A stretch of 64,000 bases of DNA from Escherichia coli (GCF_002854065.1 NZ_CP024147.1); one strand, 5' to 3'. Numbered from the stretch's first letter, positions 55,283 through 57,334 are shown. The notes: generated by a model from the letters alone, not told the origin. A program made the numbers and translations.

Positions 55283-55319
55283 CTGTATATACTCACAGCA
55301 TAACTGTATATACACCCAG
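55283..55319 (+). promoter_or_regulatory. Two tandem LexA operator sites (SOS boxes) in the lexA promoter
   Basis: CTGTATATACTCACAG and CTGTATATACACCCAG (CTGT-N8-ACAG consensus) immediately upstream of lexA. Confidence 0.88.
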
Positions 55320-55327
55320 GGGGCGGA

Positions 55328-55936
55328 ATGAAAGCGTTAACGGCCAGGCAACAAGAGGTGTTTGATCTCATCCGTGATCACATCAGCCAGACAGGTATGC
55401 CGCCGACGCGTGCGGAAATCGCGCAGCGTTTGGGGTTCCGTTCCCCAAACGCGGCTGAAGAACATCTGAAGGCGCTGGCACGCAAAGGCGTAATTGAAAT
55501 TGTTTCCGGCGCATCACGCGGGATTCGTCTGTTGCAGGAAGAGGAAGAAGGGTTGCCGCTGGTAGGTCGTGTGGCTGCCGGTGAACCGCTTCTGGCGCAA
55601 CAGCATATTGAAGGTCATTATCAGGTCGATCCTTCCTTGTTCAAGCCGAATGCTGATTTCCTGCTGCGCGTCAGCGGGATGTCGATGAAAGATATCGGCA
55701 TTATGGATGGCGACTTGCTGGCAGTGCATAAAACTCAGGATGTACGTAACGGTCAGGTCGTTGTCGCACGTATTGATGACGAAGTTACCGTTAAGCGCCT
55801 GAAAAAACAGGGCAATAAAGTCGAACTGTTGCCAGAAAATAGCGAGTTTAAACCAATTGTCGTTGACCTTCGTCAGCAGAGCTTCACCATTGAAGGGCTG
55901 GCGGTTGGCGTTATTCGCAACGGCGACTGGCTGTAA
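55328..55936 (+). CDS. lexA: SOS repressor LexA
   Basis: 202 aa, [37 protein letters not shown]...; Ala-Gly cleavage site and Ser/Lys dyad region. Confidence 0.97.
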
Positions 55937-55948
55937 CATATCTCTGAG

Positions 55949-55974
55949 ACCGCGATGCCGCCTGGCGTCGCGGT
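55949..55974 (+). terminator. Hairpin plus T-run between lexA and dinF (possible partial terminator/attenuator)
   Basis: ACCGCGA...TCGCGGT stem followed by TTGTTTTT; overlaps the first possible dinF start codon. Confidence 0.45.
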
Positions 55975-57334
55975 TTGTTTTTCATCTCTCTTCATCAGGC
56001 TTGTCTGCATGGCATTCCTCACTTCATCTGATAAAGCACTTTGGCATCTCGCCTTACCCATGATTTTCTCCAATATCACCGTTCCGTTGCTGGGACTGGT
56101 CGATACGGCGGTTATTGGTCATCTTGATAGTCCGGTTTATTTGGGCGGCGTGGCGGTTGGTGCAACGGCGACCAGCTTTCTCTTTATGTTGTTGCTGTTT
56201 TTACGCATGAGCACCACCGGGCTGACTGCGCAGGCTTATGGTGCCAAAAATCCTCAGGCATTAGCCCGTGCGCTGGTGCAACCTTTGCTGTTGTCGTTGG
56301 GGGCTGGGGCGTTAATTGCGCTGCTGCGTACGCCGATTATCGATCTGGCGCTGCATATTGTTGGCGGTAGTGAAGCAGTCCTGGAACAGGCGCGGCGCTT
56401 TCTTGAAATCCGCTGGTTAAGCGCACCGGCGTCGCTGGCGAATCTGGTATTACTTGGTTGGTTACTCGGCGTGCAATATGCCCGTGCGCCAGTAATTTTG
56501 TTAGTGGTCGGCAATATCCTCAACATTGTGCTGGATGTCTGGCTGGTGATGGGACTGCATATGAACGTGCAGGGCGCGGCGCTGGCGACGGTTATTGCGG
56601 AATATGCAACATTGCTGATTGGTCTGCTAATGGTGCGTAAAATCTTCAAACTACGCGGAATTTCCGGCGAAATGCTGAAAACTGCCTGGCGAGGAAACTT
56701 CCGTCGCTTGCTGGCGCTTAACCGCGATATCATGCTGCGTTCGCTGTTGTTGCAACTCTGTTTCGGCGCGATCACCGTACTTGGTGCGCGACTGGGGAGT
56801 GACATTATCGCTGTAAACGCGGTTCTGATGACGCTACTCACCTTTACCGCCTATGCGCTGGATGGTTTTGCCTACGCGGTTGAAGCACATTCCGGTCAGG
56901 CATACGGTGCGCGCGACGGTAGCCAGTTGCTGGATGTCTGGCGGGCAGCGTGCCGCCAGTCGGGGATCGTAGCGTTACTGTTTTCGGTGGTTTATTTGCT
57001 GGCAGGGGAACACATCATTGCGTTGCTGACGTCGTTAACCCAGATTCAGCAGCTGGCCGACCGCTATCTTATCTGGCAGGTGATTTTGCCGTTGGTTGGC
57101 GTCTGGTGTTATCTGCTGGACGGCATGTTTATAGGCGCAACGCGTGCCGCCGAAATGCGTAACAGTATGGCGGTGGCCGCCGCAGGTTTTGCGCTGACGC
57201 TCCTTACGCTGCCGTGGCTGGGCAATCATGGTTTGTGGCTGGCGTTAACCGTCTTTCTGGCGTTGCGCGGGCTTTCTCTGGCGGCTATCTGGCAGCGTCA
57301 CTGGCGCAATGGTACTTGGTTTGTCGCAACGTGA
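55955..57334 (+). CDS. dinF: MATE-family efflux protein DinF (SOS-inducible)
   Basis: 459 aa ORF directly downstream of lexA; polytopic membrane protein; start uncertain (alternative at MAFLTSSDKALW, 18 codons in). Confidence 0.88.
   Translation: MPPGVAVCFSSLFIRLVCMAFLTSSDKALWHLALPMIFSNITVPLLGLVDTAVIGHLDSPVYLGGVAVGATATSFLFMLLLFLRMSTTGLTAQAYGAKNPQALARALVQPLLLSLGAGALIALLRTPIIDLALHIVGGSEAVLEQARRFLEIRWLSAPASLANLVLLGWLLGVQYARAPVILLVVGNILNIVLDVWLVMGLHMNVQGAALATVIAEYATLLIGLLMVRKIFKLRGISGEMLKTAWRGNFRRLLALNRDIMLRSLLLQLCFGAITVLGARLGSDIIAVNAVLMTLLTFTAYALDGFAYAVEAHSGQAYGARDGSQLLDVWRAACRQSGIVALLFSVVYLLAGEHIIALLTSLTQIQQLADRYLIWQVILPLVGVWCYLLDGMFIGATRAAEMRNSMAVAAAGFALTLLTLPWLGNHGLWLALTVFLALRGLSLAAIWQRHWRNGTWFVAT

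Follow-up and report, generated by a model that had tools for sequence, protein, structure and literature searches.

What does the short stretch of DNA between lexA and dinF in Escherichia coli do to the transcripts that cross it, and where does dinF itself begin? A preliminary description of this sequence had offered two answers, that a hairpin just past lexA acts as a partial terminator, or that it covers the dinF start and limits its translation relative to lexA. The chromosome segment concerned (plsB(-), dgkA, lexA, dinF, yjbJ, zur(-)) lies in a window of 64 kb, by which we mean the whole stretch of DNA that was analysed. The locus is ordinary, being none other than the E. coli lexA-dinF SOS operon of the textbooks; its operators, its operon structure and its hairpin are already known biology, and it belongs to the best-studied loci in bacteriology. 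A 1-kb query across the junction finds a match in 5425 of 5426 complete E. coli genomes, with lexA, dinF and dgkA as the features beneath it. The junction sequence shows no difference between K-12 and the window, and K-12 coordinates are obtained by adding 4201787 to window coordinates, an offset verified with the sequence that flanks a published 3' end inside lexA (Adams et al., 2021). The features discussed below are collected in Table 1.

Table 1. Features of the lexA-dinF region in window coordinates, from the lexA promoter to the published Rho termination region.
Feature	Position	Strand	Remarks
lexA promoter, inferred (TTCCAA 55265-55270, 17-nt spacer, TATACT 55288-55293)	55265-55293	+	read by eye
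LexA operator (SOS box) 1, CTGTATATACTCACAG	55283-55298	.	overlaps -10 hexamer
LexA operator (SOS box) 2, CTGTATATACACCCAG	55304-55319	.	over transcript start
lexA coding sequence	55328-55936	+	202 aa, stop TAA 55934-55936, strong SD GGGGG
Terminator-like hairpin, 13-bp stem, loop GCCT	55947-55976	+	including one U.G pair, 8 GC pairs
ATG, K-12 reference dinF start (459-aa form)	55955-55957	+	judged not to be the real start; P unpaired 0.00, SD duplex -2.7 kcal/mol
U-tract TTTGTTTTT	55974-55982	+	the three T at its start can pair with the AGA of the stem base
Pyrimidine-rich, C-rich, G-poor tract, candidate rut region	55978-56094	+	rest of spacer and first ~28 dinF codons
Weak SD-like AGG	55997-55999	+	9 nt upstream of dinF ATG 56009
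dinF coding sequence, 441-aa form, MATE transporter	56009-57334	+	from homology, NCBIfam model and PGAP
Bicyclomycin-sensitive Rho termination region, published peak	56162 (K-12 4257949), within dinF	+	Adams 2021, supplementary file 2

Tandem operators at the lexA promoter

Two near-consensus LexA operators had been noted in tandem directly upstream of lexA, and both are found exactly there. Each has the form of a 16-bp CTGT-N8-ACAG-like imperfect palindrome with an AT-rich centre, and the two lie 21 bp apart, start to start. The pattern CTGTAT-N7-CAG occurs three times in the 64-kb window against an expectation of 0.30; the third match sits within a 491-aa open reading frame and is probably due to chance. 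The promoter was missed by a consensus scan because its -35 hexamer matches at only three of six positions, and we take TTCCAA-17-TATACT to be the lexA promoter after the classical description of that promoter.

How widely this arrangement is kept was seen in a survey of 80 Enterobacterales genomes retrieved with LexA, in which the 150 nt upstream of lexA were scanned for CTG-N10-CAG. At least two such motifs are present in 75 of the 80 species, and at 75 of the 80 loci the 16-mer of box 1 recurs unchanged, at a distance of 43-54 nt from the lexA ATG on its upstream side. The boxes of the window stand at -45 and -24 from this ATG, a position that is likewise conserved (75/80 species), and the two proximal boxes are spaced by 21 bp in 63 of the 75 species with two motifs or more.

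The two operators, which lie two helical turns apart and extend over the -10 region and the first part of the transcript, would provide for autoregulation of lexA; LexA presumably binds them, with derepression on its RecA-mediated cleavage, in line with classical work on this very locus. An autoregulated E. coli lexA promoter with two SOS boxes was reportedly described in 1981 by Brent and Ptashne and by Little, Mount and Yanisch-Perron. That promoter is the same locus, with a CTGT-N8-ACAG-type pair at the same 21-bp distance that is identical in K-12 and in the strain of the window, and we see no difference from it; the sole addition made here is the survey, according to which pair and spacing are kept in Enterobacterales.

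A terminator-like hairpin past the lexA stop codon

Downstream of this promoter, lexA and dinF form one operon (PMC3327717, PMC4481165); DNA damage induces lexA-dinF, and RNA polymerase occupancy rises across both genes (PMC3739934). The gap of 18 nt (55937-55954) that the preliminary description had counted between the lexA TAA and the ATG at 55955-55957 is exact, and the 7-bp stem it had seen there, ACCGCGA/TCGCGGT (55949-55955 / 55968-55974) followed by TTGTTTTT, is present, with the ATG in its 5' arm. A longer hairpin, of which this stem is just the core, begins 10 nt past the lexA stop codon and has a predicted minimum free energy of -24.1 kcal/mol (z = -5.4), a stability reached by none of 200 shuffled sequences. 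The same DNA read on the minus strand folds more weakly, at -18.2 kcal/mol, because the U.G pair turns into an A.C mismatch, and the hairpin is therefore tuned to the lexA-sense transcript. With a stable, GC-rich stem-loop on the transcribed strand past a stop codon and an adjoining U-tract of 8 U in 9 nt, the element has the sequence characters of an intrinsic terminator. An Rfam search of 55150-56250 returned no family at the gathering threshold, its single match (E = 4.2) being meaningless, and a promoter scan of the lexA-dinF spacer returned no promoter-like site and so no sign of a separate dinF promoter.

Taken at face value, such canonical anatomy (a GC-rich stem of 11-13 bp, a 4-nt loop and the U-tract) would suit an efficient intrinsic terminator, and since the hairpin lies 10 nt past the lexA stop, a terminating ribosome should not block it. 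In that case lexA would be largely monocistronic, dinF would live on some 10-20% read-through, and the Rho signal described below would be secondary or an artefact of bicyclomycin. We consider this account unlikely, for reasons that come from the orthologous hairpins and from published RNA data.

The start of dinF

Whether the hairpin could act on translation depends on where dinF starts, and on this point the annotations conflict: the K-12 RefSeq entry begins at ATG 55955 (459 aa, NP_418468.3), whereas PGAP begins at ATG 56009 (441 aa), and does so in every PGAP-annotated strain examined. The comparative evidence favours the downstream codon. For about 45 species in which lexA and dinF are syntenic, tblastn places the start of the DinF alignment at residue 1 of the short form. 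Across species the lexA-dinF spacers range from 58 to 297 nt and have no three-base periodicity, and in the NCBIfam DinF equivalog model (441 positions) profile positions 1-440 match residues 19-458 of the long form. E. coli proper is alone in having the upstream ATG in an open frame with dinF. A net shift of +2 nt puts it out of frame in E. albertii, and a TAA separates the two ATGs in a GTDB representative that is labelled E. coli SCPM-O-B-8794 and belongs to another Escherichia lineage. ATG 56009 is predicted to be accessible, with a probability of 0.66 of being unpaired. Its Shine-Dalgarno duplex amounts to only -2.5 kcal/mol, compared with -9.4 kcal/mol for lexA, and a YAGG/YCGG/YTGG motif recurs at the position of the dinF Shine-Dalgarno sequence in other species.

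On these grounds the start of dinF is most likely ATG 56009, and the start inside the hairpin an annotation artefact. The opposite view, that dinF truly starts at ATG 55955 and that the hairpin sequesters its start codon, has on its side the K-12 reference annotation, the open frame in E. coli proper, a GAG 6 nt upstream and a codon that is fully paired in the predicted fold. Against this, the 18 extra codons are conserved in no other species, being frameshifted or cut by a stop codon even in the sister lineages just named; they fall outside the DinF family profile and are rejected by PGAP; and in one strain an IS200C element stands between them and dinF, which is not flagged as disrupted. The ATG itself can be accounted for by stem pairing, as part of the 5' arm of the hairpin. 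We regard sequestration of the start codon as very improbable, and by comparison of sequences it seems already largely refuted: the pairing of ATG 55955 is there, but a functional, conserved start at this codon is not. The proposal in the preliminary description that the hairpin covers the dinF start and limits its translation rests on the K-12 start and falls with it, as homology, the NCBIfam model, PGAP and the sister lineages all point to initiation at the downstream ATG.

If dinF starts at 56009, the hairpin lies in an untranslated spacer of 72 nt and not over the start of dinF. The operon itself goes back to Krueger, Elledge and Walker (1983, as related in PMC4481165 and PMC3327717), and our locus agrees with the papers on it in that dinF follows lexA on the same strand, in one transcription unit, and is co-expressed with it across array compendia; it differs in that these papers give the gap as "a few" or 19 bp, a figure that presupposes the long K-12 start, where we find the 72-nt spacer with its hairpin. 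The K-12 dinF entry (NP_418468.3) is thus probably 18 codons too long, which bears on constructs, on tagged alleles and on operon-distance statistics with a gap of 18-19 bp.

Conservation of the hairpin

The junction hardly varies within E. coli, being at least 99% identical in 5324 of 5425 genomes. A common variant, T-to-A at 55963, falls in the hairpin loop and is synonymous in the long frame, and for both reasons it is silent on the choice of start. Beyond E. coli, a spacer hairpin is present in most species with lexA-dinF synteny, while its sequence turns over, with compensatory changes. Free energy was dropped as a measure of this conservation, same-locus coding windows being equally low once bulged hairpins were allowed. 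The measure used instead, the length of the longest uninterrupted stem, discriminates well: its median is 10 bp over 50 lexA-dinF spacers, and a stem of at least 9 bp is found in 70% of them; random windows taken at these loci reach that length in 7% of cases and shuffled spacers in 4%. The hairpins mostly begin 8-37 nt past the lexA stop, and their sequences differ among genera. In the Enterobacter/Leclercia group (four genomes) a homologous 10-bp stem retains 100% pairing although four of its ten pairs are changed on both sides, a degree of covariation reached by two of 500 shuffles, with at most one such pair in slid controls. E. albertii and the second Escherichia lineage keep the stem with an altered loop and reading frame, and Citrobacter has REP-like palindromes at the position of the hairpin. 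What is conserved is the structure, not the sequence.

The T-tract behaves differently from the stem. Escherichia, Kluyvera and Mangrovibacter have T at 6-7 of its 8 positions; in other genera the figure is often only 1-4. As the stem is widely kept and the quality of the T-tract varies, selection acts on the stem everywhere and on a terminator-grade U-tract only in some lineages. That many orthologous hairpins lack a good T-tract speaks against an efficient intrinsic terminator as the general function. It would better suit an element that mainly serves RNA stability, in which the hairpin would shield lexA mRNA from 3'-to-5' exonucleases after Rho termination further downstream and trimming, and would not stop RNA polymerase. 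REP elements are known as stabilisers of mRNA, and their likes in Citrobacter fit this idea, as does the conserved and covarying stem. The near-perfect U-tract of Escherichia, invariant among the E. coli genomes, does not, for a pure stability hairpin would have no need of it.

A C-rich tract behind the hairpin

The sequence that follows the hairpin is conspicuous in its composition. The stretch 55978-56094 is rut-like in being C-rich and G-poor, with a spacer portion that would be untranslated and a weak dinF Shine-Dalgarno sequence; its C/G ratio of 2.1-2.5 in 78-nt windows is the maximum of the operon, whose median is 0.79. The spacer past the hairpin has a pyrimidine fraction of 0.76 in the window, and over 34 species one of 0.64 overall with a C/G ratio of 1.55. 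Measured against background windows, the C/G ratio of the junction exceeds all of them in 15 of 50 species and ranks in the top 5% in 22 of the 50. Escherichia and Citrobacter show this enrichment strongly and most Enterobacteriaceae to a moderate degree; in Erwinia, Edwardsiella and Hafnia it is weak or lacking. Part of it may stem from the codons of the hydrophobic N-terminal membrane segment.

Published 3' ends and the effect of bicyclomycin

Data on RNA ends at this locus come from the curated Term-seq set of Adams et al. (2021; PMC7815308), which covers LB at OD 0.4, LB at OD 2.0 and M63, all uninduced for SOS. In these tables, which are complete but thresholded, no 3' end is listed at K-12 4257724-4257799, the region of the hairpin and U-tract, under any of the three conditions, whereas an end inside lexA at 4257185 (2273-2790 reads) and the terminator of yjbJ are called (PMC7815308). 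The same work reports a Rho termination region at K-12 4257949, with a Rho score of 6.1 and p = 5.6e-32 (PMC7815308). The evidence is one DirectRNA-seq experiment in which RNA 3' ends were counted in windows of 800 nt, giving 322 reads upstream and 54 downstream in untreated cells compared with 288 and 295 in the presence of bicyclomycin (PMC7815308). The untreated downstream/upstream ratio of 0.17 corresponds to a 6-fold drop from lexA to dinF, and as this drop is abolished by bicyclomycin, Rho is indicated rather than the hairpin alone. On these published data, downstream RNA is lost and the loss is relieved by inhibition of Rho, as expected of a Rho-dependent region; fresh initiation inside dinF under the Rho block could have raised the number of downstream reads. 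At 70-180 nt beyond the C-rich tract, the peak stands where a termination zone would be expected relative to its rut site. In a compendium of 907 arrays, lexA and dinF correlate with r = 0.86, and dinF has the smaller dynamic range (SD 0.71 vs 1.13 for lexA; PMC4481165). The TERMITe and SMRT-Cappable-seq supplements mention neither lexA nor dinF, and literature searches on lexA/dinF termination, bicyclomycin and Rho dependence returned nothing specific.

How do the proposed functions of the hairpin fare with these data? For an efficient intrinsic terminator, the untreated ratio is just what about 80% termination would give. But such a terminator, being independent of Rho, should prevent downstream reads from rising to the level of those upstream under bicyclomycin, and it should have left a 3' end in tables that do call those of lexA and yjbJ. 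Its standing as an unlikely account follows from this and from the variable T-tracts. A hairpin that mainly stabilises lexA mRNA gains from the position of the Rho termination region downstream of it; trimming, though, ought to produce a sharp 3' end at the foot of the hairpin, of which there is none in the published tables. With the invariant U-tract of E. coli also to be explained, we think this a still less probable account. The reading as a partial terminator, as the preliminary description had put it, survives in part: the sequence features of a terminator are present and dinF RNA is indeed below lexA RNA, but the drop is sensitive to bicyclomycin and comes with no 3' end. By the same token, read-through at the junction is not uniform, as the 6-fold drop attests, even though the uninduced Term-seq tables list no end there.

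A probable two-stage attenuator at the lexA-dinF junction

Our characterization favours a scenario in which the junction in the lexA-dinF operon works as a two-stage attenuator, made up of a leaky hairpin and of Rho acting on a weakly translated dinF, and we hold this to be probable, if by no means assured. In this scenario the spacer would serve to keep dinF below lexA. In the first stage, hairpin and U-tract would act as a leaky intrinsic terminator, as an exonuclease barrier for the lexA message, or as both, and may in this way end some of the transcripts and stabilise lexA mRNA. In the second stage, the transcripts that read through would expose the operon's most C-rich and G-poor part and, behind it, a dinF start whose Shine-Dalgarno pairing is close to nil. 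With such a tract exposed and translation of dinF set up so weakly, Rho could load and terminate some 70-180 nt further on, inside dinF. To judge from the published bicyclomycin data, most of the drop from lexA to dinF in uninduced cells would be due to the Rho step.

In support of the two-stage attenuator we count the stability and conservation of the hairpin, the dinF start at 56009, the rut-like tract, the weak Shine-Dalgarno sequence, the Rho region and the damped amplitude of dinF. Against it must be set that the hairpin, judged by its sequence, resembles a strong terminator and not a leaky one, and that the missing Term-seq 3' end, in tables that are thresholded and from uninduced cells, agrees with efficient termination as little as with a strong exonuclease barrier. 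The possible inflation of downstream reads in the single bicyclomycin experiment and the codon explanation for part of the C-rich composition count on this side as well.

Leaky Rho-independent attenuators inside operons have precedents in the rplL-rpoB attenuator and in the T1 terminator of rpsU-dnaG-rpoD. The lexA-dinF junction resembles them in placing a GC-rich hairpin and a U-tract between co-transcribed genes of which the downstream one is expressed at a lower level; it differs in that its candidate terminator is without a listed Term-seq 3' end and that the drop is sensitive to bicyclomycin. A second likeness is with Rho polarity at poorly translated genes (PMC7815308), where C-rich, G-poor RNA that is translated weakly or not at all is followed, some 100-200 nt on at most, by a bicyclomycin-sensitive loss of RNA. 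Compared with other Rho regions of that study, the lexA-dinF site is known from a supplementary table alone and lies directly behind a terminator-like hairpin.

The two stages could also form a flux-sensitive gate, in which a leaky intrinsic terminator is followed at once by a Rho terminator that is controlled by the weak translation of dinF. We put this forward tentatively, as a possibility short of probable. Heavy transcription, or Rho activity or translation altered by stress, would then pass more polymerases, and DinF output would climb more steeply than LexA as SOS induction deepens. Neither such a gate nor a Rho site inside dinF is discussed in the literature that we searched. If the gate were real, dinF would be a functionally late SOS gene despite sharing the earliest promoter.

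Set against what is already known of this locus, a K-12 start that is likely too long and a Rho site that lies undiscussed in a published supplement are small refinements. The step from lexA to dinF may hang largely on Rho and not on the obvious hairpin, and Rho dependence, if confirmed, would make the junction a neat case of a terminator-like motif misleading operon annotation.

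Variation at the lexA-dinF junction

The start of dinF is annotated in two ways. The K-12 reference (NC_000913.3) places it at 4257742, window position 55955, giving a product of 459 aa (NP_418468.3), in conflict with the PGAP annotations of other strains, which begin at window position 56009 (K-12 4257796) and give 441 aa. Comparison across species favours the PGAP choice over the reference start.

In Citrobacter (loci L005-L008, about 3110-3240) the lexA-dinF spacer measures 121-131 nt, and REP-like palindromes (GCCGGATAAGACG...CATCCGGC) replace the simple hairpin of the Escherichia type. 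In E. coli strain 43905 (locus L083, 3061-3775), an IS200C element with an annotated tnpA lies inside the T-tract directly 3' of the lexA hairpin, interrupting the alignment of the junction query at query position 60. The insertion point corresponds to approximately 55979/55980 of the window and splits the T-tract between TTTGTT and TTTCATC, and the insertion leaves a gap of about 0.7 kb between lexA and dinF. Despite the element upstream, dinF is still intact in the 441-aa form according to PGAP.

RNA 3' ends within lexA and on the opposite strand

Published Term-seq data (Adams 2021, PMC7815308) place a plus-strand 3' end at window position 55398 (K-12 4257185), 70 nt into the lexA ORF, which was called in all three uninduced conditions with 2273-2790 reads and is not Rho-dependent (Rho score 0.73). 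Neither a hairpin nor a U-tract was seen in the sequence around it, and the end may reflect RNA processing or pausing in the 5' region of lexA.

On the minus strand, the same data contain very abundant 3' ends antisense to dgkA, upstream of plsB, at window positions 55018 (K-12 4256805; 88,708 reads) and 54958 (K-12 4256745; 45,283 reads), neither of which coincides with a terminator-like sequence. A Rho termination region (Rho score 5.8) was also reported on this strand at K-12 4259142, window position about 57355, antisense to the dinF 3' end (PMC7815308).

Further features of the window

In addition to the two accepted LexA operators, a third CTG-N10-CAG motif is found in Escherichia, and in variant form in some Enterobacter genomes. 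This motif carries CTGG in place of CTGT and is unlikely to be an operator. Away from the junction, Rfam matches were collected across the window, and the rrn operon among them lies about 7 kb further from lexA than in K-12; the window strain therefore carries extra DNA between the two.

SOS-box-like motif and Rfam matches in the window
Feature	Window position	Remark
Third CTG-N10-CAG motif, CTGGTTTATTGTGCAG	55242-55257	86 nt upstream of lexA ATG, just upstream of -35 hexamer
rrn operon (16S 3' part, tRNA, 23S, 5S)	1-4317	Left edge; Rfam
Three naRNA4/REP-type elements, STnc430, lysine riboswitch	9194-9271; 33727-33798; 43399-43469; 31615-31811(-)	Rfam
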